A DNA stretch of 64,000 bases from Lytechinus pictus (taxonomy: Eukaryota): contig NC_087245.1 in assembly GCF_037042905.1 (NCBI RefSeq), positions 2,606,001 to 2,670,000 of the forward strand. The letters run 5' to 3'. This document shows, piece by piece, positions 335 through 45,600 of the stretch; the stretch's first letter is position 1, and each line of letters starts with the position of its first letter. The notes under the pieces were generated by a model that made no database searches, was not told the DNA's origin, and was given only the letters and a program-made list of their open reading frames with translations. The position numbers were made by a program, and so were the translations under genes.

Positions 335-644
335 AGTCCAGGGAACGTCTCTACCGATTTTTATTTCAAACGGTACAAGGAACTCGAAAAAAATTCAACC
401 TTCTTATACACAGTGCTAAATCAGGGAAAGTGACAGAACATCATATGCATAGGCTTTTATAGTCTACAACAAAATAATTTATTACGTAATACAAATTTCT
501 CATGTTATAAATGTCACCTGTGTAATGGGGAAACATTATGTAATCACTCAAATACCATTTTGTCTACGCGTAGCCTTTCAACTACCAACAAAACTGTCGA
601 TTTTTATTCAAAAATATTTTATTCCACCTTTATGACCAACAGTG
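1..644 (-). mobile_element. Tc1/mariner DNA transposon, 5' end (continues left of the window)
   Basis: Terminus reads TA|CACTGTTGGTCATAAAGGTGG on the minus strand (TA at 645-646 within a (TA)n run). It is followed by a transposase N-terminus with paired-type HTH and GRPR motif. Confidence 0.9.
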
Positions 645-18586: not shown

Positions 18587-18839
18587 CTACATGTTGTAGG
18601 CCACATAGATGGGATCAAGTTGATCAGCGAGGAAACCATCCCTGAGATGCATACGTTGTTTCTCACCCCTTGAGTTAATAGGAATGACAGCAGGGTCCAC
18701 CATCACCACTACACCAACGATCAGGTAATGCTCCTCCAGGACAGCGTTGGTGACCAAGGGGACAAGGTCAAGGGCTTCTGATTCCTTCCCATCCAGTTCC
18801 ACGACCACCACCAATAAGTTGGTCCATGTGAAGACAGCA
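18587..18839 (-). CDS. DIP2: DIP2 last coding exon
   Basis: AVFTWTNLLVVVVEL...DPIYVAYNM*. Confidence 0.95.
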
Positions 18840-21800
18840 CTGTGGAAAGAAGGCACAAGCAAAATTATTTACTGATCCTAAAAGAAAAAGCTGCCCTTAT
18901 CGCATTTACTGCTTACTATAATTTCACAACTTGTATAAATCCATTACTGTAATTCTTGAACTTATTCCTATTCTTCAGCATGGATACTTATATGAATAAG
19001 TCAATAATACATAATTTATATCCTTTATATCATCATCATTCGAATTATATAACACATCAATGCTTAACACGACATATTTTCTTCGTTATCATAAGTGGAT
19101 GATTTAATATTTGAATATTTTTATTCATTTCAATTTATATTAACTTTTCTCTAAGAGGATGATTTAATATTTGAATACTTTGATTCAATTCAATTCATAT
19201 TAACTTTTCTCTAATGAAAAGGATCATTACAAAGCAATCACCACAATGAAATTAATCCATTAAAAGTAAAAACAAATTTGCAAAATAAAATGGATACAAA
19301 GCCTTTGATTAATTCTTATGATTGGGGAGACACATCCCTTCTTAAAGTCATTGCTGTCCATCTAACAATATTTCAAAATCATATTTGTACTTACCACTCA
19401 CACACGTTCTTATGACATCTTAGTACAGTGTTTTCAATGTCTATAGGATGGTATCTCATTCCTCTCATCATCAATGTCTCATCCAATGACCCAACAACAA
19501 ACAGAGCATCATGGCGATCTGAAACAAAAACAACACATTTGTTGGTTATAATTAAAAGGATGGTTTAGGTAATTTTCCCAATAAGACCTTATGTGTAATT
19601 GAAAACTACCTCTTCCTGTAATTTGCAAATTGTCAAATCCATCCTGTTATGTGATCTTGTAAGTACATTGGTCCTGGCATATAGCTTTTTTGGGATTATC
19701 CTGGCTTCATTGTTCAATCTATAATCTGATTTTATATCAGAGAATTTTTTACAACACCAATTTATGCTAGCCTTGTCTAAATTGGAGGTGATACTTAAAG
19801 AGACTTAAAGTTACACATTATTTGGTACATGAAAGAGAATTTCTCTCAGATTATCTCCTTTAATATGAATATGATCTCTTAATATTAATCATTATTATGA
19901 ACACGTTTGTAAGTCTAACCCTAGTTTCACATGAAATATTGTGATGTTCTCAAATCATCATATCTTCAGCATTTTAATGGAGTGAAGTTAGATCAGAGAG
20001 ACAAAAATTTTGAAATTTTTTATGGAATTGACATTATATGAAAGTGTGACAGACACTGGAACCTACCCCCATCCGCTTGCGTTAGATCAGTCCTCTTGAG
20101 GAATCCAAGATAACCTGTCCTGGCAAACGTGCCATGCGTCTCACCGGTCCTTAGCTGAGCAGTGAAGTGATCATTATGAAGGGATTCATCTCCATAGATA
20201 GTGAAGTATCCACATGAGTTGTGCGGTGATGAGACCCAGATCTATGTGAAAGAATAGAACATTGAATAAGTATTCATATATCAAAATCATGTAGTCACTT
20301 GTGCACTATGAGAGACATAGTAGTCAAGACCATTCCCAAAGCTGGATACAAGTTTTTGGATGCAATAATCATCTTTCCATTAGAAAATGTCTGTATGACA
20401 CATTTGGGTAACAAATGAGCTCTTGGCAAGCACACATGAATATATTTCATATAGAGTGGTATGATACAAATTAGTATTCATTTTTATTATTGCTGTTATT
20501 ACACTATATACTGGCACAATATGATTACTCATTGTTCCTATGTGGGTGAGGAACATATATATATTACATAGGTTATGTAGTTTCGAATCAGTGATAGGTC
20601 AATACGCCATCACGTGACCATAGCTGCAAGGATCACATTTGTTATATTCTGGGTTTTGACGTCACCTCAGTGAATATAACTGCGTTGTATTGTCAATTGC
20701 GGCGTTATATACACTAATGTGACGTCACTCGCTGCTTAGGAGTTGCGTAATCAGGTAGTTTATTTGATGTACGCGCTAGTGTTAACGCGTTGATTGCATG
20801 AAGAACGCGCTTGATGTATTTAAAAAAAAAAATCTACTATGACGTAGATGGATCAGAGCTGTAGCAAGAATTTTAGGTTTGAGCCAGATGATGAATGCAA
20901 TCTCTGCTGGCGAATCCACATAGACTATATCATATAACAGATATTGCCTGGTCTATCGTTTTAATAAATAACATTTCAACTCCCCTCCGAAGCTATATTT
21001 TCCCTCAGCGCTGTGCGCTTCGGGCAAAATCATGAAATCCCTTGGGAAAAATATAACTCCGTCGGGGAGAGGAAATGTTATATTCAAACTCTAGGTAGGC
21101 AATATCTGTATAATATCCACTCTTATATTATCAGCACACTCATTTCGATACAGCCCATGTATGAAACTTCATGACATCATGTGAAACTAGAACATAACAC
21201 TTTTCATTTTCGGTATGAGTTTGATAAAGTTTTCAGTTGAGCTTGTGTCTCTTTTGTTCAAATCAGACTGATATTAGGGTGAACCTCAGGCCCGTAACAT
21301 AAAGCTTAGCAATGATCACAGAACTTTTTTCTACAAAAGATTGCATTGACTTCAATGTACAATCAATCATGAAAATCAAGCTTACAATTAATTGCTACAG
21401 TGTAAGCTTTGTGTTACGGTTTCCTGATCTTTATAAAATGGCTTTAAAAGTCTGGCAATAGTTACCTCTCCGAGGTGAGAGTCTGCACACTGGCCCATGG
21501 TCTCAGGGTGAGCTATTACAACCTTCACTCCAGGTAAGATCTACAAAGATCAATACCAAGACAAAGAAAAGCACGATTGAAGAGCAATAATCATCACAAT
21601 CACAATAATTGTCATAATTATAGCCATTAACATAATCAATCATAGTCATAACAATAGCAGGAATAACAATCATAGCTATAACCTTGTTCAAAATCCTAAC
21701 TACAATCAGTCAATTTAGAAGAGTCCATACCATCCTGTCGCCTTGCATTACAGAAGATTGCATGTCCTTGTAGCTCTTTAGCAAATTGACTGTCACCTTA

Positions 21801-24800
21801 TAATTGGTTTCAGATGATAAGTTTCGAAAAAACAAAAACTTTTATAACTGAACTGCTCTCTTAATTATTCCGCTTTCATTTAACCTTACAGTACTGTCAT
21901 CTTTCATTCATTAAAAGGAAAAAAATGAATAGGCACAACCCTCTCATGAGAGATTCCTAATCTAAACAGTTTGTGGTGGGCATCCTCAATGATTGAACAT
22001 TAATCAGGAGGAGTAACACTACCATATGACCAACGTGCATGTAATTGTCTCTTACTCACTATTTATAAATGAAATATACCCCCCAAAAAGGATGTGAGGG
22101 TTATAATTTTCCTGTTGTAAAGAAAGTGACAAAAAAAAAAAATTGTGAGGATTTGTGTGAGTACCTTGCCCGATTCCATGACACAGAGACTGTGAGGGCT
22201 TCCTTTCTCTACAATGGTAACCCTGTCATTCCTCAGAGCTCTCGTATCAACGTAGACGGTGGTAGGATCTGGACTCGATGCACCCTGGTTAAAGAAATCA
22301 TAGATAACACAGGCTTAATCTCCAGACAGGATGACAACCTTGATACAGAAATGCACTTTTGATGTAGGCAGAGTATAATGTAATATATAATAAAACAGCT
22401 GTAACCTGAGCTCAGCTAGAATATACCCAAATACTCTAGTTTATTCAGGACTTAGAATTATTTGTATTTGCACTTTATGAATGTTGAATATCATTTTTAG
22501 TTAGATTTTATGCAAATTTGTTAAAAACAACTCCAGCTGTAATGGCAGCTAGGTCAATAAGATTACTCTGTAGACTTCAAAAGAGTTGCAGTATTGATCA
22601 TACCTGTAATGCAATAGCCATATTGACCCTGCAGCCAAAGGACGTACTGACGGCTCTAGGTGATAAACCAAGACTTGAGAATAGCTTAGAGAAGGAGTTT
22701 GTAAGAGCTACTCTCGGCCTCTCTTCAGCCACTACCACACAGTACCTTACAGCTGACAATAAGATGCCTCGAGTCTGGAAATGAAAAGAAATTCAAATTC
22801 AATTACATGGCTTGAAATTCAGAGTTCACTTTTGAATTCTAGGCAAGAGAGAAAAAAAATTGTTCACAATGGATTTTATTAAAGTTATAGATACCACCAT
22901 TGTAGAATAAATTTTTAGCCTAAAAAATTACTACACTGCATGAATTATTTATTTGTAGTCTCAATTTGCTTAAATTGTATTTTAAAAATACATCTACAAT
23001 ATATTTTAATGAACATCCAACTTCTAATGGATTTTCAAGTAAAATACATAAAAGAGTATCAGCGTATAGTCTTATCCAAGGTTGGTTCCCTACACACAAG
23101 TGAAAGTCTTCTATACCGTAAACTAACAGCTGATGCAAAAGATTAAAGTATGGATTATGTTCATGAGTGTGAGTGATATTTCTGTAGTCCAGTCAATTTT
23201 TCATCCTGACATGAACTCCTACTACCAGTACTTAAAGACAGGCAATGGAAACCCATTTACCAAGAGAAGAATAAATGTACATAATGTAAGTTACCTTGAG
23301 GGTAGAGACGCTCTGACCGAGTCCTTTAGTACAGATCTCCATGACGGAGTAGGAGCAGAAAGTGTCACGAACTGCATGGTAGAAGATAGAAGAAGTATAT
23401 ATAATAATATAAATATAATCAAAGAAAGGTTGCCTTGAGAAAAAGACATTTGTTGGAAATATTGAAGAGGAAAGAAGAGATTATGGGATAATAGAGTTGC
23501 ATAAGGATATCAGCTGAAAGTTTTCACCTTTATGTTGACTAAGAGCTGTCAACCAGAGTGCTGGGTTGGTCTCTATTTCAGTTGGTGGAATCAGGATTGA
23601 CTGATGACCAGAGTACACACTGAAAGAACAAGAGGGAGAGCATTAACACGTATAGGGGCTACAGTTACAATTGATGCCTGCATATGCACAATGTGTAAGG
23701 CAATTTGCTCAATGCTCAACGCAAAGACATCAAATTTTTATTATACATGAATGTGAATTACTTTCTTCTGGCAATACAGGTAAATTTCAGAATGACGCTT
23801 ATTGTCCAGCCTTAATTTTGCCTTCATTTGTTTATTATTCATCTTAATGGGAAAAACAGTATCTTAATCTTGACTGTTTCTTGCTAATTCATTTGATTTT
23901 GGAGATGGTATTTTAACACATCCATGTTGATATTGTTTCCAGCTGTAATACAATCATCACAGACCAAAGGCTACCAAGATAAAGAGTAGTGTTAGGTTGA
24001 GAGATCAGATTAAGAGATTTTTTTTTATATATACCTGCTGAGTACCCAAAGGACAAATCCTAGTCCACAGTAAGGATCCAGACAAAGACATACCACCCTA
24101 GAAGGGTAGAGTTCACAGGCAAGCTTCTGGGCTCGGCACACTGCACTCGCTGCTGCATGAGACATCTAAACATACAAGAGGAGAATGAACATCATATCAT
24201 AATGAATGCATTATTATTAGACCTTGACATTCTTACAATACAAGATCTGAAAACAGATCATCCTCATTGCCACTTATCTTTCATAATTCTACCTTTATAC
24301 ATCTTTGCTGTGCTCTTTAAGCTCATACCTCCAATAATGAACATTTAATCCAATTTTAAAGTCAAATTTATAACTATTGGGGCATTGCAAGAAACTTGTG
24401 TTCAATTGCAAAACCAAGCGTACGTTTCATAATCTAGCACCATGGGGCATTATTACAAATTTGAGTTACTATTGAAGGCAAATCAACTACAGAGTTGTAA
24501 TTAATCAAAGAACATCAACATGATTTTGTTACAGACGCTTGACTTAGGATTGTATAAAGATTTCTTGAAATGCCCCAAATGAGAATAACCAAAATATCTT
24601 TGAGCTACTTAAGTGTTTGTCAACAATTCTTGTTGATGTTTCATAGACACAAAGGAACATCACCCATACTGATTCTTTCCCCAGAGCTACACTGTAGGTA
24701 TGCTACAGTGATGTCATAGGCAAGCTAGCAAACAGAATAGTTCATGAGTATTTGTAAAATAACCACCAACATACGATGATGGTGAAGATGAAGAACAGCA

Positions 24801-27643
24801 TCTGTATATTGCCATTTATCTATAAAAGCATTAAAAGGTGCAGTTCAAATACAGTGTATGATACATTTCTTGAGCATCTTTTCCATGACAATGCCCATTA
24901 TAGAATGGCAACCATGCATAAATAATTACCAGATGCATGGCCAGCTATGCATCTGGTAATTACTTAGGCATGTCTAGTCATGCGTCCGGAATTACTTATG
25001 CATGGTTGTTGAAAAAAAGAAAGATTTTTAGCCAAAAAATTCCACCATATTATAAAAAAAATGATACATAGGTTTGTTCGTGCATCGGTAGGACTAGTGA
25101 GCATGTGGTAACTATGGAAACTAGTCTAAACCCACTCGACTGCACCTTGTGGGTTTTTGACAGTTCCATATTTACCGTACCCTCACAAAACCAACCGATG
25201 CACTAACATCTGTGTATCATTTTTATACTAGGGGACACCCTGACCATACAATCTTGCCTACCTTGACCCCAGCAAGCATGCCTGTAGTTGAGACACTGAA
25301 GTCTAGGAAGCATAACATCTCAGGGGTAGGGGCTCGATAGATACCAGATAGCTTCTTCTTTGGAAGGTCATCGGTGTCCAGGAGAGGGGGCCATGTCTTG
25401 ATATCTACTGTTCCCATTGCCTCCTGTGAAAACAATATACGAGGAAAAAAAGCTGAAGTTCTTATCTGGGTTTTCATAGTTTACTGTATTAGCTGATATT
25501 TTCTCATTGGTATTATTTTCAAAAATGTTGTGAGTCAAAATCACTAAACATTTCTACTTTGCTGACATTGTTCTATATGAAAATAAAATCATAATTGTAA
25601 AAATAACTTGTGATCATGTTGAACCATTTCAAAGTGTGAAATTATCTGTATGCTAACGTATTGGCCAATCCAACATGTGTACAAACTCAAATTCTATTCT
25701 CAATTTCTTGTCAAGAATGAAATATCATTTAATCACACTTGAAGCTTTACAGAGGGTGTTTATCAGATCGGCTCAGTGATGAGATTCCATTTAGCTCTTA
25801 TTTTTAATCATGAAAAATTGTTTTATTGTACAATCAGTAACGATGTATAAAAGAGTCAGATAAAAGCTGATAAAACAATAGCAAGCAAAATGCCCCATGA
25901 CAGTTTCTGTAAAAAGTTTCATAAAGCTTCATAAGATTGTTAGGATTCCTGACTGACCTTTGACTTGAGAAGTTTAATGATGGTTGCCGTTGAGAGAACA
26001 ACCACCGACTTGCTGACCTCAACCACCATACGAACAGTAGGCAACGTTGTTACAAGGCTCTGGGCATGGGGAGGACGTACAGTCACTGGAACAGCACCTA
26101 ATTTGAAAGAAACACAGGGAATAGAGTGAGAGATCCATGTACATCCTGATGGACAAAAAAAAATGGATGAGAAATACCTTTCCAGTGGAGCATTTCATTA
26201 GAAACTTGTCTGATGTTTTATCTTACAAAGTGTGTTTGATCTGATCTGTTATAATACAAACAGTCAGAAACATGTGCTTCTAAGCAAATCAAAACCAAGG
26301 AAAGTTGTAAGATCTTTCTTGTCAGACAAAAATGTAGATTAAATAATCTCCAGGATACTTTTATGTGTAATAAAATCATTGGCTTTTTACATTATAGTGA
26401 GGAAGGAAGTAATGGTGAAGATCTCCCCCAAAGAAAGAAAGAAAAAAAGGATTGTTGAAGGTGAAAATACTATAAAGGGGTTGCTACAGGTAGAGTTAAA
26501 TGGAAACTTGAAACAAGACCCGTCTCTCAAGGGAATGTAAGGAGAGATGGCATACCAGAACAGAAAGGTAAAGAGGGTACTTACCAACATAAAGACATCC
26601 ATAGAAGGCTACAATGAGATCCAGACCAGGAGGATAGATAAGAGCTACATGGTCACCAGAGTTAACCCGACCCTTCTCCTGAAGAAGCAATGCCACTCTC
26701 TCAGCTCGCTTATGAAGCTGGCTACAGTTCAGTGTCATGCCAACCTGGCCCTGAAAACAATACAAGGTACAAGGTCAAAGGTCACCTATGAATTATTCTT
26801 ACTGACATCATAAGATGTATGAATATATTCCAAATGTTGAAACAGTGAACACTCTCTGTATGAATCACTAAAGAATTAGATTTTTTGTTTCCTTTAGAAG
26901 GCAAGTAATATGTACAAAGTACACGTCATTTCCATGAGAAAAAAAAAACTGGAGGTTAATCTCAGACACATCAAATAAACATAACATAAAATCATGTGAT
27001 CAATAATCATTGCAATTATTACATAGCACATTTTTCCCTCTGATAATAAAATGGGAGCAATATATAATATCATCAATTATTGTTGATATGTTTGATGAAA
27101 CAGGGTTAGGTCAAAATAAACATACCTTGTTATTTAGGAGTGAGAAGAGGACATGGTCTGGTGTACTCTGAGCTCTCCACTGTAACACTTCAGCTAAGAA
27201 CTGATTCTATATATTGTAAAAAGGAATAAAGAACATACATATTCATGTAAACATCCATGATTATGTAATAAACTTTGGTGAGGTTGCAATTCTCATTTTA
27301 GGGGGAGGGGAGGAATTGATCGTCCCATTTTATGCTGGCCATTGCAATAGAAGAAACTTCCACAAGACATCCTTTCTTGGCACCTTCATTAGTTCACTAA
27401 AAACTGGCTATTCAGAAAGGATTTCCAGCAAATGCAACTCTTAACCACATTTTACATAGCATATCTATTTACTTCCTTTCTTTACTGTATCATAGGAATC
27501 TTCTCATGATGAATACAGATGCATTACAAATGTTATCATCACCATCATCATCATCATCATCACCATCATCGTCGTAGTCATTGTCATCAACATCGCCATA
27601 ATCATCATCTTCATCATCATCACCCTAATCATCAGCATCATCC

Positions 27644-27693
<50 letters not shown>

Positions 27694-30600
27694 GTCGTCA
27701 TCATCATCATCATCATCATCACCATCACCATCATAATTATTATCTGACCTTTCTTGATGTTTCTGTATCTTCATCCCATGTTCCAATCTCTCTCCCTGAT
27801 GCTCCTGCTATCCTTGATCCTGCTACCAGGTTTCCCATCATCACTGATGCAGGACCAACATCTGTAGGTTTTATCCTTGGCTTGGGAAGGTTGGTCACAC
27901 ACCTATATTAAAAAATAAAATCATTTGATAACACATGCAATCACGGACCAGTACATGGAGATTTGATGTATTTAACCAGTCAATTCCGACATTCTGTAAT
28001 TCCCATGGCTCTGTACATGGACAATCCAGTAAGCTTAATGAAAAATTTAAAAAAGAATTATGGGGTGGGGTTTCTTCTTATCTTCATCAGCAGTATTCTG
28101 CAGGTGATCCATCCATCCATCTATCTAAGCCTCCATCAATCTATCCTGCCACCCATTAATCCTTTACCAACCATCTTCCTATCAACATAACTATCTTTCA
28201 TTCTATTTCTTTCATAAGATTGATTCCTCTATCTATCTGTCTACCATTCTCTCTCATAAACTATGATGTTAGCTATCCATTTAATGCTCAATACACACAA
28301 ACTTACTTATAAAAGCTATCAAGAATTGAAAAAGATAGGTCTAGATACATGTACTTAAATTTCAACCAGATTGTCACAAATTTCTTGAAGATTTGTATGA
28401 ATGAAAGAAATTGAAACCAAATCAAACGTTAGATATATACGACACGATGGATAAATTCATCTACTTACGTATGAGGGCACATGAGTACATTGGTAGGATG
28501 AAGTGTTCCATTGATGAATCTCTGTTTGGTCTCTGACAGGTGGATTCCTCCAAGAGGAGTCTAAAACAAAATAAAATACATAAACAATCAAGAGACATAG
28601 ACTCTTATATCATATTTTAAATCCACTGTAAAACATATGGACCTTGGCAATGAGGATATCATCATATGACACAAGTAAAAAATAATGAACAAAATATGAC
28701 TTTTTAATAAACGGAACATGCTTCAAAGTAAACATGCCTCATAATCTGCCTGAAAATTATACACAGAGACACTGGTATTATAAACCTTATTAATTCATTT
28801 GGTATCCCAAGTGTAGGTGACAGTGTGTGTTTTTCTATCTAGGATATTATCAATGCCACGATCCTATCATCATTATGCTAAGAGACATTCATAATATCTC
28901 ATTTTGGGAGCTGAGATGATTTCAGTTGCAAAGCTCCACACCAATTTGTGATATACTTTATTAGGAAATTGAAACAATTATTGATATAGATGTGATCTTA
29001 CCTTGGGGAGTGAGTTTGGAGGAACTAAGGCCAGACAGTACACTCCAACTTGATGAATGCTATCCACAGCCTGTAGTACTCTACTCATCCATTGGAAACA
29101 CTAGGAAGGAAGGAAGGAGGGAGGACAAGTGGTGCATTATCATTTTTTATATAGAAATATAGCCCTAATATTATGATGTATTCTTTAATCTAAATATCTG
29201 ATAAACATATTTTGGAATCAAACAATTTTTATGGTTTGTGAGTTAATAAATTAAACAGTGATTAATTGAGACTAACTCTTATCATAATGAATGAATGAAT
29301 TGGTCCATATCAAAGATATTACCATAAGACTTGGGTTTAACAAAACATACAAATCAATATCAATACTTCATGTCAATCATTTGAATCAGAATTGCCAGAC
29401 TTACAATTACACTTATTTCAATCATTTATTTCCAAGTTACAGCACCAAAGAATGTACAATTGATATAGTGAGGGGAGTTAGGGGGGGTGTATTACCTCTT
29501 CCTCTGATGCTTCTGGTCTTTGTTCTGCAATGATGATTATCCTATCATCCTTTAGGACTTTTATCGAGAACACTGCAATTCTGTTGGAAGAAACAAGTCA
29601 ACTTGTAAAGAATACATATTGTAACAGAAAAATATCAATTTTTTTGTCATAAATAATTCAAGATATGTAAGGAGCAATAATGATAAACTATCCCTCATTT
29701 GGTGTCCCTTCATGTGCTCCTACAGCAATTGATCTTGTCTTAATTTCTCTGGATGTTTTTGGTTCAGAATATTGTCCAGATTGGGAATTATGGCTATGGT
29801 TAGGTTTGGGGTTACTTATTTATTTAATTTTGGCTTAATGAGAAGTTTATGCATAAGGGTTGTTATCACTGGAACTTATTTCATTGAATCCCCTTTAAAT
29901 ACAACAATTCTTAGATCTACATTAAATAATGACCACTAACCCATTTGACACAAGAGGATATGATAAACAAAAATGACCCCAAAGTGAATGAGTTGAACGT
30001 ACCTCCCTCTGTAGATGAATTTGAGTGGTTCAACAGCCAGTACAGTAGCTATGATGTCATCCATATTATGCCTTCTACCACTGATGATCATCAAACCATC
30101 TACCTTACCACAAACAAACACTAGTCCACCCTGAAAATAAGAAAAAAGAGATAAACATGTGTTTGTGGAGTGCTGATATGGCAGAAGTATATTTCTACAT
30201 TTTTAATATTTTCCCTTGAATTTCTAGGACAGCTGTCTAGTCAATTCTAGTTGGAAACCTTTATAACATCTTCTTTGCTGATTCTCCAACCAACACTTTA
30301 CAACGTTCCTAATCATGAATCCCAGGAAAATACCATAAAATTGATGATATCAAGTTAAGGATGGAAGAAATATACAAGGAAAACATCAATCATGGACAAT
30401 GAATTCTATCCTTTGAATTAAGATCATGAAATAAACGGGAAAAATCAACAAGAAAAATTTCGAAAAACAATATTCCAGTTCCAAACATTGAAAAAAGAAA
30501 AATGAAGAAGGAAGTAAGAACTTACAGGTCCAAGGAAACCAAGCAGTCCTGTCCTAACAAAGTGCTGATCACTGATTGGCTGCTCATAGTCCGTTAATGC

Positions 30601-33600
30601 TGTCACCTGATATTCATAAAACAAATGAAACATACTTGATAAACTAACATAATCTCACATGGTTCAATTATGCCAAAACAGAATGTATTGAATGCCACAT
30701 TACAAATTGGCATACCTGCTTTTTCCAGCATTAATGATATAAGTTCATTACATATACATACGGAGAGGACCTTAAGCCGTCAGCCTTCTAGTTGCTTGCT
30801 TACAAGCATTCATGCTCTCTTAGCAGTCAAGTAAAAATCACCACCATTCATCCGTGTAAGAACATGATCACTTACATTAAATGTAGCATTAGTCTTTCCC
30901 TTCAGACCCCAGAATGATCCTCCGACTGATTCTGATGAGACACACAGTTCTCCAATCTCATCTGTCTTACACAGGACTGGTGGACCATCAATCTTCACTA
31001 CAACCATAGCAGCTATATCAAACAAACAAATGTATGGTACAAATGAAAATGGAAACCAAAATGATGACATGAATTTGCCACTTCTCTCACTGGTAGTATC
31101 TCGATGTAAAATATGTAGAATTGTAATCATAATTTAAATAGCAATTTCAAGCATGATGGTGACATCAATCAATGAAGAAAATGCCTTCCATAGCTAAAAG
31201 TTATTTCAATCAAGTTATAGTCTTTGTGAAGACCACAACCGTTATAGAGAACTCTACTTCACTCTTAGAGATTTGTTTCTGGTTTAGAATTAATTAAAGG
31301 TGCATGCACATACAAAAAGGCTTAAATTCATGCTACTTACACCACAAAATCTGTATTAAATGAGGTTCTAATGTAAATCTTAATAATAGTATCGTGTTTC
31401 GGAATAGGTTATGTCTAGATAGATGCACTATTAAGATGCCTATTATTATTTTTGTGAATTCAAGCTCACCTCCTGGCATGACTACTCCAACATCTTGCAG
31501 CGTTAATGATGTGAGTTTGTCATCTGTATCCACCCTGACAACACCATACGACAGACCAGCCATCGATAACACCCCTCGACCTGATGCTGTCATACCGGTC
31601 TTACCAGGCCTGTTACCATGACAACACAGAATACATAGATGTGATGAAAAATTATGGTAGAGAATATTGGAGGGAAAATGTAGTAAGAAAGACAGCCGAT
31701 GATACAGACAAAAATAAGTAGACAGCATCAATGGAGACCTGTTATTAATCCTTTTTCCTTCTAATATCCCCCGTTTTCAATCCCAGAAACAATTTCCCCC
31801 TTGCTTGATGCATTATAGGGCAATACTTGATTTCAACTGGTTATGACTGATGTATACTTAAATATGGATAGAAATAAGCTTCTCTCTTTTGTTTCATTAT
31901 CTTCTTTTATTAGCACCAAATATGTTTTATTCAGGAAATGAATGAAAGAGGGGGGGGGGGGGTAAATCATAGTTGAAAAACACCATCAACTCAAATCGAA
32001 TAACATTGAAACAAATTTTCATGCTTTGCCAAATTTGACCAGGCAAATATAGAATGCAATTTTAGATTTTGATATACTACATGTATGATGTTCTTTGAAG
32101 TGTTAGTCTGTGCTCATATTTATCTGGTGAGATATCACATTCAAAACCACATACCCATGTTACCCAATCACAAATATCAGTATTGTAAATAGGAAGTGCT
32201 GTGCTTAAGATGTTTAGTACCAAGTGACAGAGTATATACATTCTGATATGTGTGCAAATGTAGGACAATCCTTTGTTTTAATTTTCCTGTGTCAATTTCA
32301 AATAATTAGTAAATAGTAGTAATCCTTTCTACAATAAACTGTATAGATTCCTTCCATGCTCAATTTATGGGTAAGTCAACTATCACACAGCTTTCTCTTC
32401 ATAATTCCTATTATGAGATTGAAATAGTAAACATCAAACATGTCATCCTGCCGAATCCATTTTCTATCAACATCTCAAGTAATATAGCATGTTCAATGTG
32501 AAATATGTTCAACAATATCAATGTTCAAACTATGTATGTCAATGTGTAACCTGTATTCAATAAAAGCATTCTATAACATGAGCTTGGGTTTAACTCAAAG
32601 CATGCACACTGGCATATCTTTTGAGTAGCAGACAAACTTTTGTTATTGTCTCTTATCAAAGGAATTTCATTGGGTTTAATAATTAATTTTGCCAGGGGCA
32701 TAACTACATGCCTTCAATAACATCTCAACATGGAAGAAAGTATGAATCAGGATTTCAGGAAAGAAAAACATGCCTTTCTTTAAAGAGCTTGAGGAATAAT
32801 GGTTAACCTAATGTCCAAATGAGTAAAATATATTAATTTTAGAGGAATATAGACAGGAATCACAAATTTTCATACTTGTACAGGCCTTGGCCATGTCTGC
32901 ATTGTAACAGAAGATGCATGGGTTTTAATGTTATGACAAACACACAAACAAATAGTTAAATCAAGTTCAGAGCTCACACAGAAGAATTTGCTTACCAAAA
33001 TTTACCACTGTTGACAAACAAATGAAAACAAAGAGAATGAGACTGACTGTCTAAACATGGTTTCAGAATTCATTAACGAACTAGCAAAGAAAGGTCATGA
33101 ACAATGACCTATAAATATCAAACCAAAATTCAGATTTTATGACTACAGTATCAATACTGTCTGGGTTTTAATTCTCTGTGAAAGATATATTATTAAAAGG
33201 TATTGAGATGCCAATTGTGATGAAACAATCTTTTGGGGGTATCAAAAATATTTGAAAATATTTTGATATTGATTTTAATTGAAAATATCAAGAAAAAGGT
33301 AAAAGATTAATATATAATGAAGTGAAATAAAAGTAGACAGACTACACAAGGAAGAAAAAGTGAAAATGTGACTTTTATACATTTATACATGAATCAGCCA
33401 AAAAGTTTGATTGTAAAAATGGAACAAGAAGAGGAAAAGAAGAAAAAGCTTATGAGATTGAGAAGGAAATTATCACCAGTTTGATATGAGCTAAAAGGGT
33501 GAGATAGAAACCGATATTCAATAGGAAACATTTGACACCCATTTTCACTATCATTTGATGTGAGCTAAGAGGGTGTTATAGAAACCAATGTTCACTAGGA

Positions 33601-36600
33601 AATAGTTGACACCAAATCTCTCAGCAGCAACTATTTATTCTCAATTTGTTTTGGAGGGAGGGTTTGACTTACCTTCGTATTGAGACTGTGAGAGCCTCTG
33701 CAGCACAAGCACACGGACATAACACTTCAGGTTTGAGACCTTTACTCTGGAAAGTACTCAAGAATGCATCGCATGATGACAGGGACCCTAAAAAGAGGAG
33801 AAACAAAGGAATAAAAAGGGTTTAATCTGTCCAAATTACTCTGCCAATAGCACAGCCCAACACATCCTTATCATGACCCATATCTTCCTTCTTTTCAGAA
33901 GTGTTATATGACTTGTAACCTTTCATGTTTGATAATGTCATTATTTTCAAATAAGTCTGATTTTCCGCAAGTTGTAGTATTACAAATAATTCTATCCAGC
34001 AAGGTCAAAGATCTTCATTTATTTCTGGAGAAAAGAGGAAAAAAATTGAAATGGGCACATTGCATTGTTTTTCTTTTCAAAGCATTTCTTAAACCCCCTC
34101 TCCCCTGTTTCCCTATTTCTGTACTTTTGTTCAGTTCCAACATCGTCATTTGATTTTTTGATTCTTCATGTACCAAAAGCATGTTGACAAGTGATTGATA
34201 TGAGACTTACAAGGGTTAGCTCCATCAGCAACCAGAAGCATTCTTAATGAGTTCAGGTTGATTCCTTTGTGTTCTTTCTGGGCCATCAGACCCCAGTGCA
34301 TGTCTCTTGATTTCACAATGGCAAGGGTGGCTGTAGAAAACAAAACAGAAAAAAAAAAGGATTCCAATAATTGGTTGATTATGTGTCAAATTAGCCAATG
34401 CGTGAAGAAAGGTGATAGCTCTGAGTAAAAATCAATTTCTAAATTTGGATTTACTCCTATTACAACTGAAGGGCCTTCTTCATTTATTTTCTTTAAAATT
34501 TCCAATCATCAGTCTGGATTTGAGAGCAAATTCTGATACAGAAACAAAGAAGGTTTGAACAAGTCAAATAGAAAACCTCAGTTAAAACTTTGAAGAGGTA
34601 ATGATAAGCGTGATACTATTATATATGTGAAATCCCTTTTTTTGTATTGGACATTATAATGCACCCTGCTATATGCGCACATTATAGTTTTATCATTTGA
34701 CTTATAAAATGAAAAAAACAGTATGAGATGTTCTTGGATAAAGGATTTCATGTAAAAAAAAATATTTTAAAAAAAACATTAAAAAATAGAAGGAAAAAAA
34801 AAAAAAATCATGACAAGAAAAGTCGTAATTCTGATTTTAGTCTGGAGAATATCATGCCTGAATAAATAAAGATAGAATTGAATTGAATGAATTCTTACCT
34901 TTGTACTTGGTTACAATGTGCATCCATGATGCTGGATTTACTTTCATGAGTGAGTAAGGAACAAAATATACTTGCATCCCATTGAAGACACTCTGGATGA
35001 AAACAAAAAGAGATAATTGTGATGAAGTCAATCATTACATTGACATATTCTGTGTCTTGAACACAACTGACAGAAAAGAAACAGCAGCCTTTGTTTATTG
35101 ACGGTGATCAAAGGAGACAAAGAAGGTCATCGTAATAGACATGGTCTGTCCTACATACAGGCAATGTATTTTTTTTAATAGTGTACCCCCTCCAATTCTT
35201 TAGATGTTCAGACTTTCATTTGATAATGTCTGCTTTACCTCAAATTTATTTGAAAAAACAAAATCTGAATATTCATTTCATCTGTCCAGTAATTACATGC
35301 ATGCTGGGACTATAGTAATGCCTTTGTATTTCATCCGTTAGATATGGATGAGTATTATGCAAATAGTGACTTTATTTCATTCATTGCTTGCCACACCTCT
35401 GTGTTTGATTTATGTTTTCCCTTCAAGGAAAAAAAAGTACTGTTGAAGAAGCACAATTAAATGCAGTCTTTCTGTGCAGGTACCTGAAGCAGATCAGATT
35501 GTACAATGGCTCTTCAAGATAAACGAGTGTTGTCTATACTTACAGCTTGTACACTATGCCATAATCCTACATCTCTCTTGAAATCCAGGACGTTCACCAT
35601 GGTCTCTCCTTCTCCATAGCTACAAGCAACTGTCAACGTCCGACAGTGGTAAACCATCGACCGTCTTGGAATCGTCACACCCATCACACTGCCCTCGTTG
35701 TCCGTTGTGTACTGAGAGATGAAAAGAAAGGCATTTTTTTTATATCTCTAGAATCATACAAGGTATAATATTGTCTTATTTTGACTTGTATCAAGACAAC
35801 CATGATCAAGGCCGCTTCACAATGGACATCTGCAACTGATGTATGTCAGTATACACACTCTACAGAATTCTATCTGAAATCTCACAGAATCTCATATTGT
35901 TTGTAATAAAAAATGCTCACATACAAACATCTTCTAAGGTAAAAATGCATTCCATATCACTGTCACATATTTGAGCAGCCAGCCTATTGTTGAAAGGGGA
36001 AGTGAATCTATTAAAAAACATAAGACCATATATCTAAACCCATGTTCCATGCAAGTGACTTTCTAAAAAGCAATGACTGGACAGAAGGTTGAACTGTTCA
36101 ATCAACAGAACCTGACATCTCTCATATCTTACCTCAATATATGCAGCCATATCATCTGCAGGACGGGGTGGGATCTGCCAATCCTTGGGAGGTTTTGAGA
36201 GGTGTTCTGTTACATGCCATGCAAGCTTCGGCCAACCTAGAGAAGAAACAGTGAAATTTGATTATTTGATAATGGTTCATCAATAGTGCATGGAAGCAGC
36301 AGTCTATAAATGAATAAGTATTTGATAATTATAATGCTGTTGATGGCAATATATCTCTGAAATTGCCTCAAATTAAAAAGCCTAAATGTAGAATGTGGTA
36401 ACAACAATCATGAGAATGTGGTAACAGTGGAGATGGACAAATTGCAACCAATGTAGAAAGATCCCCAAAATGGATCACCTTATCAGAAACACACTTATCC
36501 TACAGTCCTATATTCCTGAAGAATCTGAAGTGCTTTCTCTTAAAATTCTCTTCAAATACCTGAAACATTTACCTTTGAATCTGGACACCTCCCCTGATTG

Positions 36601-39600
36601 TGTCTTCGGTAGCTCCTTGAGACAGGCACTGGTTGTCAAGGCAACAGAGATGCCACAACCTCCTAGTAGGAAACCAATCTGTTGACTACCAGCATCCTAG
36701 AAGAGATAGACACAGTCCAAGAAGTGAAGAAACAAGTAAACACAACAAATGTTATTCATGGATGGCCAAAATTCACAAAGATTATTTGAAATCACAATTT
36801 ATGCAGATACCATGCATCAATTATACTTGATTTAAAAAGTACCATTAGAAAAGGTCCAATATGTGTATTTGTCAGAGAACTTTATTTGTGCTTGTTGTGC
36901 ACGAATCCATAGTTTATTTTAGGTGACTTAGATCAATAGTCAAGAGGCATATTTAAACAAAAGATTGATTCATTCCTATGACTTTGAGGTGATCTAAAAT
37001 CATTCATTACAATAATAATAGTAGTTACATTTATATAGAGCTTACTACATTATGCTTCTAAGTGCTTTTAACATGAAAGATATTTACTCTATATACTTAC
37101 TCCCTCAGCATATTTTATAACTCATTAAAAATATCATACTTTCCAATCATAGAGGTAAATAATATCGTTATTTGTGAGCACTTACCTTTTTAGTGACTGG
37201 TACGTCTATTGCAACTGGTACAATCCCTGCAAAGAGACAGCCATAAAATGCACAAACGTATGCTGCTGGGTCTGAGTTGGGATATACAAGCGCCACCTAA
37301 AACAAAGAAAAGAAAAATATGGATGAATATTCAGAGAAAGATGGATAACTCAAAAGAAAATTTTAATTTTGTTTTGCTGCAGAAACTGGGAAATAAATTT
37401 TAAATGCATTTGTTATGCTCACTCAACAACAGCAATGTTTGTGAAGAAAGTAACTTATCAACCTACATTTCATGCAATATAATTGAAATGCCTGAATATC
37501 ATTCAATATCATTTGCCTTTAACTAGTGCAATTACCATTCTACCTCATTTGAAACAAGTTTGGATGCTCAAATTTGTTCTCTACTCTTTCCAGTTTTTAC
37601 ATGATTTTAATTCAGTTTGTGTTACTACGATAGATGTTGATATGCAGGTTACAAAAACAAAATCAATAATTGATGAATCAAGTGTGTATACATGTAGGTT
37701 CAAACAATATCTTAGATTTGTTTTAAGAAGGTAGAACTTACTCTGTCCCCAGATTTCAGTATGGGTTCTTTTCCACCTAATTTGTTCAGCAAGAAATAAG
37801 CAATTTTGTTTGCTCGGCTGAGAAGTTTTCCTGTAGAAAAATAAAATCAGAGTAGGGAAAAATAAAACAGAATGATTGATAATCACAAGCATTTTTTCTT
37901 ATGCAATATCAAAATATGGCCATGGAAGTATTACCCATTGCCACCCCCCACCAATCTATTCTAATCAAGTAACTAGTTTTTACTTATCAATCACTAGCAT
38001 GATTATTTAAAACTGTTCAGTAAGATACTTGAATAATCAAGATATCATAAGTAGTATATTTTTCAATTAAATATATGCATTTGAAGATGAAAAACATTCA
38101 AATATAAAATAAAGATGTATTAGAAAACATATTATTTTTTTCTCTAGTTTTACACTTACAAATCATGGGAAATGGTTATAACTTTTTCATTTGAACAGAT
38201 CAACACATTCCGCAAATTTTATCATAACAATGCATTAAGTTCTTCACCTAACATTCAAAACAAATAAATCAGATTATCCTAATTACATGTGGCTTACCAT
38301 AAGTGAGCTGGAAATGTACTTTGCCATTGGCATCTAGTGATGAGATGATAGGAACCTTGGGGGTTGCAGTGCCGTATCTCTGGACTGCCGCCTCTAAATT
38401 CCTGGGTAAGCCTGTCGGTACCTGTATCAAGGATGAAGTTAATGAAAGATGATAGATTCAGATGAGGGCAAATAATTGTGTTTATAGATAGGTGATGACT
38501 GGTGAGAAAGATTGGTGGAGTGTTATTGTATAGATGAATTAGGATTCCCAAATATTGATATAGATCTACTTTATTCATGTGCAAAATTTACAGTCTCAAA
38601 AATGTATCATTTTAGGGTTAATTAATACCCAATCAATGTATTTTTTTCAGGTGGAAACGGTATTATTTTCATTGTCACCACCATTTTTGCCATTTCCGGG
38701 TATCACCACCATATCATATCATGACCAGGACTTTAATAATTGTTTTTATCATGATTAGGAATTTAATAATTGGTGTCATAGTTGCCATCAAAATCTTTAT
38801 AATCATCATGACCTTCATGACCACCATCACCACCATCATCAGCATCATCGTTGTCATCATTGTCATCACCACCAACACCGCCACGACCCCATCACTGTTT
38901 GCATATTTACGGCTATGCTTATCATCTACTAATTGCAATGTCATTTCCACTTACATTTAGCTGTTCTCCAATGGCAGGTGTGATTGTATTACCCTCGGGC
39001 TGGGGTGCGTTGGGATCCATCTCGCTTGCAGCTGATGAAGAATAAAAACCCCAAAAATACAATATGAATATTAAGTTTTGTTCATGGTTGCTAATGTACC
39101 TTTAAAAATATATGCTTATCACACAGGTGATGGCCCAGTATATAACAATCACCATGTAGAATAGAAATGAATGTTTACCTTCTAATTCTTCTTCTTCATC
39201 TTGGAAGAATTCTTGTAGTGGTTTTCTCTTAGGTCTCTTCAGTGTGTTTAGAAGCTGCTGAATCTTTGCAGACACCTTACTGTTCACCATCGACCCTGTA
39301 GAGGATGAGAGAGGATATTGGGGAGGGGGAAGTAAGCGTAAATGAAGATGATTAAGTACTTATTGTTGTAGAAATGGCACTTTAACCTCTAAGATCCTGT
39401 GAGCCAGGTACCTTGTTGTTAGGCACTTCTATTTGCTTTTCAACCAAGATTTATAATTTTTTGTTATCAAACAGTAGAAATAAGCATGCTCATTTCAATA
39501 TCAATAGTTTGTTCTACCATATCAAATGTGAATTTAATACTTATTAAAATTGAACTAAAACTAGGACTATTTCACGCCTTGTCCCACCTCCAAGATATCT

Positions 39601-42600
39601 TAATATTTTCAACAAGAACTTCCAGAATGTCAAATATATTATCTGTTGTCCATGAAACTTGATTTTATTCACTCTCATTTGTGTATTTCAAACCCACAAA
39701 AAGATGAATATAACTGGTTACAATATGTACACCACTACATGTACATACATGGATGTGTATATGATAATATATTGATACATTGTATGAGTCACACTACCAA
39801 GTGCACCTGGGACCATCAATGATAATTTATTCAATGCAGCCTACATGACAGGTATTGAAGAGATTTACAATTGTTTGGATGATTACCAGGCATAACTTAC
39901 TGGTACATCACCTGAATATCATGCATATGATCAACTATAACAAAAGGCAGATTCATATTCAGTTTTAAAGTACTGTTGTATAACAGCAACAATGCATGTT
40001 TAATATTTGCTCCTAATTCTCGATATCAGTCAATCAAAATTCAAACATTTCTCTCATATCACTTATTAATATCAATATTACTAATTAAAAAAAAGACACA
40101 AATGAATGAAACAAAATTAAAATTATGACAAACTGCTGTTTTTATAATCATAATCCAAAGATAACACCTTAACAGTAATATCTGATTCTACATAATGCAA
40201 TGTTTTCTGGGTTGATGAAATGGAACTATTAAAAATATTGTCATACTGCATCTAATATGATTCTTGCATTATCTTAAATAAACATTCTTTAATAAGAAAA
40301 AAATCTTAATCTTACCAAAGCTTTAAAGAAACGTAAGACACACCTTGCTATCTGCACTCCTCAATTCAATATGAGCTGATATATGAATTTACTGTTTATT
40401 CAACAATCATAATACATGTAATCTGTAACCTTGAATGTGGTAAACTTGCCCTGTTCACATTTTCACTTGGTCATGCCAATTTGATCAATCAAACACTAGG
40501 GATCATTCTATTTGTAACATCTCAATTGTAAAAATTTGAAGGGCCTGTTAGGATCAGTCCACAAAATTATTTAAATTCCAAGTGAGAAAACAAGATGATT
40601 TACAGCATCCAATTTAAAAGAGATTGTTCTGTTAACTACAGGTTTATTCTGAAAAGGATGTAAGTAAAAGTTTAAAGCCAAAGATTACTTAAAGGGATGC
40701 TCCGGGCTGAAAAATTTGATAAAAAAAAGAAATAGAGTATAATTCAAAGAGCAAAATGCTGAAAATTGTCTTCAAAATCTGAAAACAAATAGCGAAGTTA
40801 TTACATTATATAGTTTAGCAATATATTGTGAAAACAGTTATATGTACGATGTCATGAATATTCATTAGATGGACTAATGATGTCACATCCCCACTTTCCC
40901 TTTTCTTATGTTATTACATGAAATCATAAATGTTTCATTTTTTCATACATGTGTGAAGGATATGTCTCCCCTGTAATGAAATTAAGGTTGCAGTGCATAT
41001 CTAATGCAAATAATCAGTTATTCCAATATTTTTGGTTCTAGAAGGAAAAAATTAAATTAACCTACATGAAATATCATATAATAAAATACAAAATAACAAG
41101 TGGGGATATGACATCATCAGTTTGGTCATTGAATATTCATGAAGACATGCCTAGAACTGTTTCACCGGAATAATGCAAATCTTTAAAATGCCATATTAAA
41201 AACTTTGTCATTCCTTGTCCGATTTTGATCAAATTTTCCATGCTTGTTTGTCTGATTTTTCTTAACCTGTTCAAGTCATATTATTTTCAGCCTGGAGTAC
41301 CTCTTTAAAACAAGGTAACAAAACAAAATATATTCTTACCACAAACACTAAAATTTCACAGTAATGGCAAAATTTTAATAGCAAAATCAATCAATTATCC
41401 TCAAAAACAAAATCAGTTTCCCCGCAAAGGCTAATTTTCTTGTTTTAAGTTATTGTCAGTTTTAAGGTTTGTAATAGAATCCAGATGAGCTGGGTCCATT
41501 TTTATGTGAAAGGGGTATCTGAATAAATTCCTTCATCCAACAGCTCCTTCCTCCATGAGGCTGTTACTAATCTTTAATAGATCCATAGACAATTATAGAT
41601 GAATTCCACTGATTCTCCGGACCTTGATTGCAGGAAATTCATTGTAATTTTAGAAACAAGTACAACAGAATATTTCATTAAATGTCATCAATAATTCTTG
41701 AGAATCTGTAGTTCATAATATGATCTTCAAAATCCTTACGGAGACCGATTTCATGATATAAGTGAGACCAATGGTATATCTGGGGAAAAACAGTATTTTT
41801 GGGCTTTATGCAAATACCAACTACAGTACATGTATATCAGACTAGTGGAATATTATGATGCCATGGTTAGCATTGAAATCACACCCCTTGCTTTTTCATC
41901 ACATTACAACTTTCATTTTTTTTACTAGTTGCTTTTGCTCTTTTTTTTGTGCCCAGGGCAAATGTCTCCTTGCCCCTCCCTAGATATGCCACTGAGAGAG
42001 ACCTTGTTCTTTATTCATTTACGCACAAAGAAACAGACATTTTTTTATGTATATATTACTGGCAAACTTTTTTATTGTGTTCAGCTTAGAGAGTATAGGT
42101 TATTACTTCAATGTGTGTGTGTGCATGGACTTTGCAGCGATAACCTCATAACAAAATATTAGACCAAAGACAATTTTATCTTACCTGTATATAAATGTTT
42201 GTGTTAACTTCCATTTTATTAGAAATGACCTGACCACTTTGAATGGGTTTGCATGTTTGAGTGTGTGTCTGTGTGCCATAATAAAATAAAAACAATACAC
42301 CCCTTTCAACAAAGGAGGGAAGGGGGGGGGGGGGGGGGGTAGAGACACACTGGTATCGATTATGCTCCAAGCATCTCAAAGTTGATTTAAATTTTGAAAC
42401 ACAAAAAGTTGCCATGATATATCAGCACAAACCCAAACAATGAAGAAAGGGCCTTGATTAAATTTTTTTACATTAATTGGAATTCAAAATCATCTTTTAA
42501 TATCTCCAAATACAAGCCTCTAAAATCTGAGTCATCATTTTAGAGTGTGACAAACTGCCAGCAACAATCCTAAAGAGGTCTCTCTCCTATGAGAAAAGAA

Positions 42601-45600
42601 GATTAATGCAGGTTATTCATTCTCTTAACCTTGGACAATGAAATCCCTAGAAAATCGCCCCTTCCTGTACTTTTTCTCACTAAGCAGTATGCTTCCCTAC
42701 ATACATGTAACAAGTATCCGATATCAGCACACACCAAAATGCTCATAAAAACAACTTGAATTACATGCAAATTCAAAGGTAGATATCCTGAAAAGTAATA
42801 TGGAAAGCGAGCTTCATACATAGTTGTTTACTCTTTATTTTCTTCACATACCTGTTGTAAACCATTCAAGCGGCTTTAGCCCAAAATTTACAATACTGGA
42901 TAAAGTTACCATGACCTAACAACTTCAGAAAATAATATTTCAAGAATAATGTATTCTTCTATACTCACATTATTCTACGATAATTACAAGCACAGAAAAT
43001 TCATACACAGAAGAAAAGTCTTATAAATAAACCTCTAAGGAGCCTGTTGCAGAAAGCGTTGTGTTTGAACACAACTCAAATAATCAAACGTAAGTCAGAA
43101 ATGTGCACTTCTGATTGGTTGTAGATCAAGTCTCATTCGATCTCAACCCTTCATGCAACAGGCCCTTGGTGCGATATACATATATTAACCTTGCCTAGAG
43201 TATAGTAACTGCACTATATATATATGGACATTATTATTTTGCTGAAATTCCATGAACTTACATAAATGCACAAGAACACTCCATAATGAATAGCAATGTA
43301 TTTATCCTCCTCAAAGAGAGAACGTCAATTAATGAATACCGTTGGCACCTTCCTGAAATGTTCAAACAGCATTCACACACCACTGTACACATTCATCGCT
43401 CTGTGTCTTCCCTTTGAACATCCAGTATCCGTGACAACGTGGGGATCCTGAGCCGGATGGCAGCCCACCTCGCTCAGGAAACACAGGGCGAACTAAAACT
43501 CTCTTTAGAGGCTCTTTGACTTGTTCTTAAAGACACTGCATGAACACTTCATCGACTCCATGCATAATTTGGTGCAACAATGTGTAGTCCCACCAAATCA
43601 AATCTGTGTCTCATCCATGGTGAATGCTAATCTTTTAACAATTCTCAATGCCTTTGTACATGTATCTCTCAGACAAAAAGCATGGCATTTATTCTCCAGC
43701 CTACATATGCATCCAGTTTGTTACTACTGTCCTTGGTGCAGTGTTTTAGGTGGAAAAGAGGGTTCTCTGCAAACATGTATTTGTTTATGAATCATCTGGG
43801 CCATTCTTAAATGGTCTAGGAAATTACTAATTTCTTCTCTGTACTTCAGGGCCTTTCAACAAATCATTTACCCTGTAGGGCCTGTACTTGTAGTCAATCA
43901 TTTAAACAATATTCACACTATAGTCTGTGTAATATACAAATATCTACATAAAAATAAGGAATACCCAGGCCCGAATTCTTGCATGTTTATTTGGTCTTGT
44001 TGACATCTCTGAAAACTGATAAATTATTCAAATTTTAAACTTATCAAATAATAAACAGAAACTGATTTTAAAAAAATCTTATATAAAATAACCTCAACAA
44101 TTTCTCCATGAACATAACAGGATATTGCTGTCCACATGCCGACAGGTGCATATGCAAAACAATAGCACTTTGATTGATAAAAGGTTAAGTGCATTTTTGC
44201 AGTCATACCATAAAACATCATGAAGCATGATAGTTCTTAAGTGTACCTCATATTGGAATAATTCATTCCACAGACATGAAGCTTTCTTATGCTAAAATAG
44301 AATTTGTAAGTTCCACTCAACGCTGAAACTTCCAAACTGCTTATCAGTGATATGCAGCCCCCAGTTATTATTTTCCTAATGACAACTTCAAACACATGTT
44401 GTTATAGTGATAGCACACTGGATTACTCATCTTAGCTGAGAGAGATTCCTTGTTGCTACTCAAGTAATCTAAGAGAGGAAGGAGAGCAATAGGAGAAATC
44501 ATGGGAAAAAAAAGAAAGGAAGTCAAGGCAACTCACCTGAATCGTCTGCGTGCTTGCTTGTTCCCTGAACGTACGCGATGTGACCCGAGCTTGCCGTCAC
44601 GTCAGGAGGCGGCTGCACAGCGCCACCAGACCCTGTGATTTAACGTAATCAGGACAGAGGAATCGTAGAGTGATGATACCTGAACCTGCTTTGCTTTGTC
44701 TCAAACAGTGGGATGCACATAGCATATCACAGATGTAGCTTGCCTCAAGGGCATTTCAAACCCCTTATTACCTCATAGATATTATTACACAAAGGAATGC
44801 GCTATGTAGGGTATGAAATGACAATTAAATAGGATCTTCTTTGTTTAAGATGAAGAAAGAGAAGTTGATGAAATCTATCCTGTTAAAGTCCTCTACTAGA
44901 CCTGAATGGAATCACTGATACTGAATACCAGCGGGAATGTCTTACGTGTAATATAGCCATGAGCAATGGCCTGCTTCTTTCAACATTCAGCAGAAACTAT
45001 GACAGATGTGGAGGTGGGGGAAAAGATTTGCTTAGATCTTCATTTTCCAAATATATTGCTGAATAACCTTGACAGAGTTTGGTAAAGACCTAATGATTCA
45101 ATGGTTATATTTTCTTTCTAATACTAATTTCAACTTGAGGGGGATATGTGAAGAATCAAAGGAGGCTAGAGGTTGACCAATGTGGGATGTCTTCTCCTAC
45201 AGGAAATGTTCAAGGATAGGCACTGAGGAGTTGCCGAAGCACTTTATTGGGTGGGTGTGCGGCTCAGTATATGCGACCCCCAAGGCAATTGAGAGAGGAA
45301 AAGATCATTTAAGACAAACACAAATGTAATTTCTTTCCATTCTGTCTGTCTGCTTTGTCTCCTGTTTTCAAAGAAAGCATTTATGGCATCATAGTCACAA
45401 ATGAATTATGAAGTACACAAAGCACTCATGGTCTTTGAACTAAGAGCTCTCACATATCCCATGGATGAGAAAGTACCTTAAGTTACCTCCTTGGAATAAA
45501 GAAAAGTAATGTTTAATATTTTGATATCAGAAATCCTTGTCTGCTCTTAGGATAGTTTGGCACCTACTAAAGAAGCAAAAACAAATGTTGTTTGATAACA

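Follow-up and report, generated by a model that had tools for sequence, protein, structure and literature searches.

The window analysed here is a stretch of 64,000 nucleotides from Lytechinus pictus (contig NC_087245.1, positions 2,606,001 to 2,670,000), whose minus strand carries a DIP2 gene. The RefSeq protein XP_054750065.1 (DIP2C-like isoform X1, L. pictus) matched this strand letter for letter over 49550-18590 in 37 blocks, leaving a five-residue gap (residues 615-619) between the exon ending at 33673 and the exon starting at 31609. Within the intervening intron, the minus strand at 33007-32996 reads TGGTAAATTTTG, flanked on the 5′ side by a U-rich tract with CAG and on the 3′ side by GTAAGC, as read off the window. 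Inclusion of these 12 nt converts R-R-P into R-S-G-K-F-W-P, which accounts for residues 615-619. The features at the locus, with the evidence for each in brackets, are as follows.

18590..49550, minus strand: DIP2 coding span of RefSeq isoform X1 (XP_054750065.1), 37 exact-match exon blocks plus the microexon (protein-to-window mapping).
33673..33786, minus strand: upstream constitutive DIP2 exon, ending ...EALTVSIR plus AG, with a strong donor (reads, protein mapping, site scores).
31610..33672, minus strand: host intron, phase 2, 2063 nt = 665 + 12 + 1386 (reads, protein mapping).
33008..33042, minus strand: 3′ splice-site region of the microexon, U-rich, with UCUC/UCUU, CAG and a 35-nt AG-free zone, free of UGC (motif scan).
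32996..33007, minus strand: 12-nt cassette microexon with phase 2 at both ends (junction reads in X22, X23 and X24 of the four RNA runs; RefSeq XP_054750065.1).
32990..32995, minus strand: microexon donor GTAAGC, 7.2 bits, against an in-sample median of 8.8 for the gene's donors.
32935..32982, minus strand: UG/U-rich stretch downstream of the microexon, with four TGTG and three TTTGT (motif positions).
32601..32606, minus strand: TGCATG, an Rbfox-type word (motif scan).
31470..31609, minus strand: downstream constitutive DIP2 exon, starting G + PGKTGMTASGRGVLSM... (reads, protein mapping).

Elsewhere, an ORF lies at 92-394 (minus strand), which presumably corresponds to the HTH portion at the N-terminus of a Tc1-type transposase.

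The original prediction, made from the letters of the window, described a 12-nt unit with a pyrimidine tract, CAG and a GTAAGC donor, lying in a phase-2 intron (31610-33672) longer than its neighbours. Both descriptions are accurate for the minus strand: the host intron is 2063 nt long, whereas the median length of 20 neighbouring introns is about 452 nt. The 301-nt stretch around the microexon was single-copy in a genome search. The acceptor is weak, scoring 7.6 bits against a gene median of 11.0 (in-sample, the scoring matrices being derived from this gene). Although the microexon was the top-scoring AG/3n/GT unit of its intron, 24 of 300 dinucleotide-shuffled versions of the intron scored as high, and both of its own splice sites fall below the gene medians; the sequence alone therefore made it suggestive, not decisive. 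The microexon with its flanks (33035-32985, minus strand) also resembles the downstream acceptor and exon start (31640-31590), with a local score of 29. One of 35 other acceptors had the same score, and 11 of 1233 windows across the gene scored at least as high, in a comparison whose windows were picked after the likeness had been noticed; an origin through local duplication of the downstream acceptor may be kept as a weak lead. High-scoring AG/GT units of 3, 6, 6 and 9 nt were likewise seen in other DIP2 introns, by sequence score (45489-45487, 42974-42969, 25572-25567 and 28315-28307, minus strand), of which 45489-45487 and 42974-42969 would, on our reading, introduce stop codons.

Four raw-read RNA runs were aligned to positions 30700-34500, with 6% of X21-X23 and 25% of X24 examined. 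Runs X21-X23 come from one study of one organism (organism A), and X24 from the related organism B, which shows many fixed exonic differences. Two joints were found across the host intron: one is plain skipping, and the other places the 12-mer, as its reverse complement, between exons 33673 and 31609. Inclusion and skipping reads numbered 0/16 in X21, 11/14 in X22, 16/0 in X23 and 4/2 in X24, so that both forms are present in X22 and X24. The inclusion reads had 0, 9, 12 and 2 distinct starts (X21 to X24), 14 of the 16 in X23 carried the exact 12 letters, and the letters inserted in X24 were identical to those in organism A. Stranded runs placed the transcript on the minus strand. The junction search that the original prediction had called for thus yielded 31 reads with the microexon and 32 without it, summed over four runs without tissue labels. 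Because RNA reads (in X22, X23 and X24) carry the exact 12 bases between exons 33673 and 31609, the in-frame microexon is real; it is alternative and switch-like, ranging from none to all of the reads by sample. Inclusion differed among X21-X23 at p of about 1e-7, these being same-study runs without tissue or stage labels. The unit has the properties of a cassette microexon, namely a length within 3-27 nt, AG/GT ends, both inclusion and skipping junctions, a preserved frame and conservation in relatives.

Intronic reads of organism B near the microexon occur in one place only, just downstream at 32605-32985, where coverage is about one read deep and at least 90% alike; very thin as it is, it may hint at conservation of the flank. 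At 30760-30850 an intronic repeat collects RNA reads by the hundreds to thousands that match it in part and originate at other places in the genome.

Both forms are annotated in RefSeq for three urchins, as DIP2C-like isoforms X1 (including) and X2 (skipping).

L. pictus: XP_054750065.1 (X1) and XP_054750069.1 (X2).
L. variegatus: XP_041482429.1 (X1) and XP_041482438.1 (X2).
Strongylocentrotus purpuratus: XP_030829623.1 (X1) and XP_030829626.1 (X2).

Among 15 of the 21 members of the XP_054750065.1 cluster, 11 isoforms include the microexon (2 of 3 in L. pictus, 5 of 6 in L. variegatus and 4 of 5 in S. purpuratus), and one in each of these species skips it. The insert is SGKFW in L. pictus and L. 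variegatus and SSKFW in S. purpuratus; the single model of Diadema setosum skips the microexon. These records uphold the earlier claim that SIR-R-PGK becomes SIR-SGKFW-PGK with the frame kept (also confirmed by translation), show that the exon is conserved in related urchins, and overturn another claim, that gene predictors would likely miss it. The three inclusion species all belong to Echinacea, and Diadema lies outside it. The divergence of S. purpuratus and L. variegatus is put at about 35-50 Ma in the accessible text of PMC11719709.

For a wider view, 341 proteins were fetched, of which 307 were scorable by pattern; many are isoforms, so the sequences are not independent. Among the 34 unscored proteins, 16 had a plain R-R-P-G loop on inspection, 1 was an intron read-through and 17 were off the site. 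The insert was present in 11 of the 307 scored sequences, all from L. pictus, L. variegatus and S. purpuratus, and was absent from the DIP2 sequences of amphioxus, asteroid, crinoid, holothurian, Diadema, mollusc, annelid, arthropod and rotifer and from 3 fish sequences. No other DIP2 among the 307 carried an alternative insert at this site. Deep bilaterian conservation of the microexon was rejected on these data, as no insert occurred outside the three urchins. The sample represents vertebrates by the 3 fish sequences and Diadema by single models, and did not include hemichordates or other Echinacea; the term Echinacea-restricted so far describes the present range of the microexon, not a proven limit. 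Searches of the literature on DIP2 microexons and on DIP2 in sea urchins returned no account of it; the accessible text of a study of S. purpuratus adult tissues (bioRxiv 10.64898/2026.09.05.749416) does not name DIP2, and its supplements may list the exon. The microexon is genuine, annotated yet uncharacterised, and lineage-restricted, being known from three urchins so far.

Two further features of these proteins lie away from the microexon. The RefSeq urchin isoforms have three alternative N-termini (MDYQVARSR.., MMKDSHSKR.. and MFSEW..; window 49550-49473 and upstream), and XP_054750065.1 lacks the DMAP1-binding domain that is present in Diadema and other animals.

Pfam assigned to DIP2 two AMP-binding domains (PF00501, twice), PF24919 and PF23024. 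The domain hosting the insert was identified as FAAL-like domain 1 (FLD1), with an AMP-binding/FAAL fold and an A5-type motif, by Pfam, phmmer and Foldseek. In the phmmer alignment, CPCACAAEALTV was matched to YPCYGMAETTLI of the FAAL 7R7G, and the segment past the site to the following hairpin region of 7R7G. We take the aligned motif to be the A5 of ANL enzymes, and the FAAL-specific insertion would come after it. The insert starts eight residues past the A5-aligned Glu (E607), and the predicted loop placement within FLD1 agrees with both the 7R7G alignment and the pattern-scored loop. Among 296 non-inclusion sequences the loop has 12 residues in 288, 11 in 6, 14 in one and 25 in one, and inclusion lengthens it from 12 to 16. 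The loop is rich in Gly/Ser/Thr and occurs as 44 distinct 12-aa sequences; its second residue, which is replaced on inclusion, is R in 295 of the 296 and K in 1. The intron interrupts the codon of this Arg (AG|G), so that splice-site constraint may contribute to this conservation.

When FLD1 was modelled by AlphaFold2 in both its inclusion and its skipping form (44-row alignments; mean pLDDT 68), the models reproduced the overall FAAL fold (Foldseek E 1.7e-34 to 3KXW), and only this overall fold is usable. The loop and the next 45-50 residues were below 50 in both models, which therefore lend an effect on the protein no structural support, and a PDB sequence search returned no DIP2 structure. 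According to the accessible parts of the literature, A5/A7 are conserved in FLD1 and required for DIP2 DAG-to-TAG routing in yeast, and in vitro reconstitution of the reaction failed (PMC9342972); the FAAL-specific insertion is recognisable in animal FAAL-like domains (PMC8460268), and Dip2 activity is tied to PKC signalling (PMC12055004).

With modest confidence, we favour the reading that the urchin microexon is likely included by stage or tissue under a control other than eMIC/Srrm, and that it would tune, without destroying, the first FAAL-like domain. Stage or tissue control of inclusion, taken on its own, seems to us slightly better than an even prospect. Skipping would be the default, the microexon's own weak splice sites standing beside a strong upstream donor. 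A sample-dependent RNA-binding protein, guessed from the motifs to be CELF-like, would promote inclusion from the downstream UG-rich stretch; this stretch, which lies 14-60 nt past the microexon, is the strongest lead among the motifs and a candidate enhancer for a CELF-like UG-binding protein. The added Lys-Phe-Trp would lie on a surface loop that runs into the FAAL-specific insertion, where the insert could alter FLD1 activity (DAG-to-TAG routing) or contact with the membrane or a partner domain. The Rbfox signal invoked earlier is present, but at chance frequency: TGCATG occurs 17 times in the 31-kb gene, about 0.76 copies are expected in the downstream 1386-nt intron, and the one copy seen there lies 390 nt away, so that the proximal enrichment of an Rbfox-activated exon was not found.

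The main alternative is that this is a conserved alternative exon whose inclusion here is set mainly in cis, with DIP2 haplotypes that include it almost always or almost never, as would a polymorphic exon or a strong splicing QTL. Inclusion of 0/44/100% in X21/X22/X23 does look like allele dosage, the three runs differ in alleles, and they resemble one another in the read depth of DIP2 and Srrm2/3/4 and in how Srrm2/3/4 is spliced. The allele 30924A was carried by 20/23, 8/38 and 0/28 reads (87/21/0%) and 30996T by 22/25, 8/29 and 0/21 (88/28/0%) in X21, X22 and X23, and the skipping share (100/56/0%) falls in step with both as inclusion climbs. However, none of the exonic alleles listed here matches inclusion in all three runs. 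In X22, 30924G stood at 79% against 44% inclusion (p 0.007), and the shares of 31513A (4/16, 22/26, 10/20) and 33684A (4/18, 27/38, 0/20) followed other courses. The skewed allele ratios in X21 and X22 suggest pooled genotypes, and the cis model can be made to fit by assuming one haplotype split that was not seen. It would also need a long-lived or repeated polymorphism, given that three species have both isoforms in their annotation; regulated splicing is therefore favoured over a shared polymorphism, and we regard the cis explanation as doubtful on balance. A more far-reaching reading makes the microexon an Echinacea-born, all-or-none, neuron-independent switch of the catalytic FAAL-like domain of DIP2. 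SGKFW, in place of an Arg otherwise kept in the animals sampled, would sit where the chain enters the FAAL-specific insertion, and DIP2 would then control selected diacylglycerols differently from one developmental state or genotype to another; this we hold to be unlikely.

A second alternative follows the original prediction in assigning the exon to the neural microexon programme: it would depend on the eMIC of Srrm2/3/4, and high inclusion would mark samples whose DIP2 RNA is mostly neuronal. The size, frame preservation, weak acceptor with AG-free zone and UCUC, and long host intron fit such an exon, and the 3′ end of Srrm2/3/4 was located in the genome (L010:748-9900, that is G000:C2:22.749-22.759 Mb), with a fly-like layout in which a poison exon lies between the RRRITR and eMIC exons.

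L010:748-926: Srrm2/3/4 exon ending RRRITR (genome search).
L010:2682-2833: stop-containing poison exon (genome search, RNA reads).
L010: from 9716: distal eMIC exon, continuing SARKLPVPYDRP (genome search).

Matches of PF15230 at L002-L005 were rejected as Srrm, the coding strand there being the other one, with retrotransposon pol; we take these loci to be multi-copy pol fragments of the RNase H-like region, whose opposite strand weakly matches PF15230. A 22-nt exon at L010:6383-6404, between the poison and eMIC exons, was supported by 6, 3 and 2 reads in X21-X23, and intronic repeats at L010:2200-2400 and 3930-3970 likewise gather RNA reads of other genomic origin that match in part, again by the hundreds to thousands.

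Production of the eMIC in flies requires that the proximal poison exon be left out (PMC8797185, accessible part). Here, the joint from the RRRITR exon to the poison exon had 25, 38, 22 and 15 reads and that from the poison exon to the distal exon 22, 31, 36 and 6 (X21-X24), making this form common in all four runs. No eMIC-coding joint occurred among the best 15 of 26 joints in X21-X24, including X23 with its 16 of 16 inclusion reads; if the eMIC-coding share is truly zero, its 95% upper bounds are 11, 8, 13 and 18%. Inclusion thus did not track an eMIC-coding isoform in these four bulk RNA runs, as judged from those 15 joints. Because inclusion moves from 0 to 100% without a visible change in eMIC, with Srrm2/3/4 splicing alike and similar DIP2 and Srrm2/3/4 depth, the eMIC programme is argued against, although bulk RNA could mask eMIC in few neurons. 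The motif scan found no UGC within 78 nt of the acceptor, the nearest lying 79 nt away at 33086; UGC accompanies 74-79% of SRRM3/4-dependent microexons and is not obligatory, according to the accessible part of 10.1101/2024.09.17.613571. Inclusion is moreover the form of most RefSeq models in all three species. The neural assignment finds no support in these results, and the microexon probably stands outside the neuronal eMIC/Srrm switch; dependence on eMIC is in our view quite unlikely. As for another splicing factor, a gene-name search of six supplements of PMC5703972 on Esrp knockdown in the S. purpuratus 24 h embryo, where the urchin table goes by human orthologue names and may not cover the exon, found neither 'DIP2' nor 'Disco'.

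We give little credence to a tolerated, near-neutral exonisation without effect on DIP2 function (a reading that overlaps the regulatory ones), to which the absence of the exon outside three related urchins, a loop variable in sequence and at times in length (8 of 296) and the possible local-duplication origin lend some weight, whereas the exon has persisted over tens of millions of years, altered in a single residue (G/S), can be fully included, costs the protein an otherwise invariant residue and brings in two aromatics.

The favoured reading, stage- or tissue-dependent inclusion that tunes FLD1, would make the microexon a switch-like echinoderm microexon outside the eMIC programme, the cis explanation a strong splicing QTL. 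The main interest of the microexon lies in all-or-none inclusion combined with a position in a near length-fixed loop adjoining the FLD1 catalytic motif. The DIP2 literature searched held no functional isoform difference inside the catalytic domain, and a natural 4-residue insert beside the A5 motif, in a bilaterian loop of near-fixed length, offers a two-state probe in a genetically tractable urchin; such a probe has value since the DIP2 reaction has not been reconstituted in vitro, as reported in the part of PMC9342972 available to us. This interest is bounded by an exon already in RefSeq, by the three urchins so far and by a function that is predicted.

Among known systems, the eMIC/SRRM3/4 neural microexons (accessible parts of PMC8797185 and 10.1101/2024.09.17.613571) are alike in being 3-27 nt long, frame-preserving and switch-like, with a weak acceptor, a long host intron and a place in a domain loop. 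The urchin exon differs from them in its acceptor without a nearby UGC and in full inclusion without an eMIC-coding joint among the best 15 of 26. Mouse Dip2a contains a different short alternative exon, MmuEX0014698, classed as 'eMICsens' in table S2 of PMC8797185, a point in favour of the eMIC alternative; at 22 nt it is not frame-preserving alone, and it is likened here by size and gene family, with no evidence of homology. The same table, in its accessible part, lists constitutive exons only for fly DIP2 and mouse Dip2b. The RefSeq X1/X2 pairs of the three urchins represent the same exon as the microexon, as automatic models without inclusion levels, regulation or function. Finally, the bacterial FAALs (7R7G, 3KXW and 3PBK; accessible parts of PMC9342972 and PMC8460268) share the FAAL fold with DIP2 FLD1, and in the alignment to this fold the microexon site follows the A5-aligned motif.
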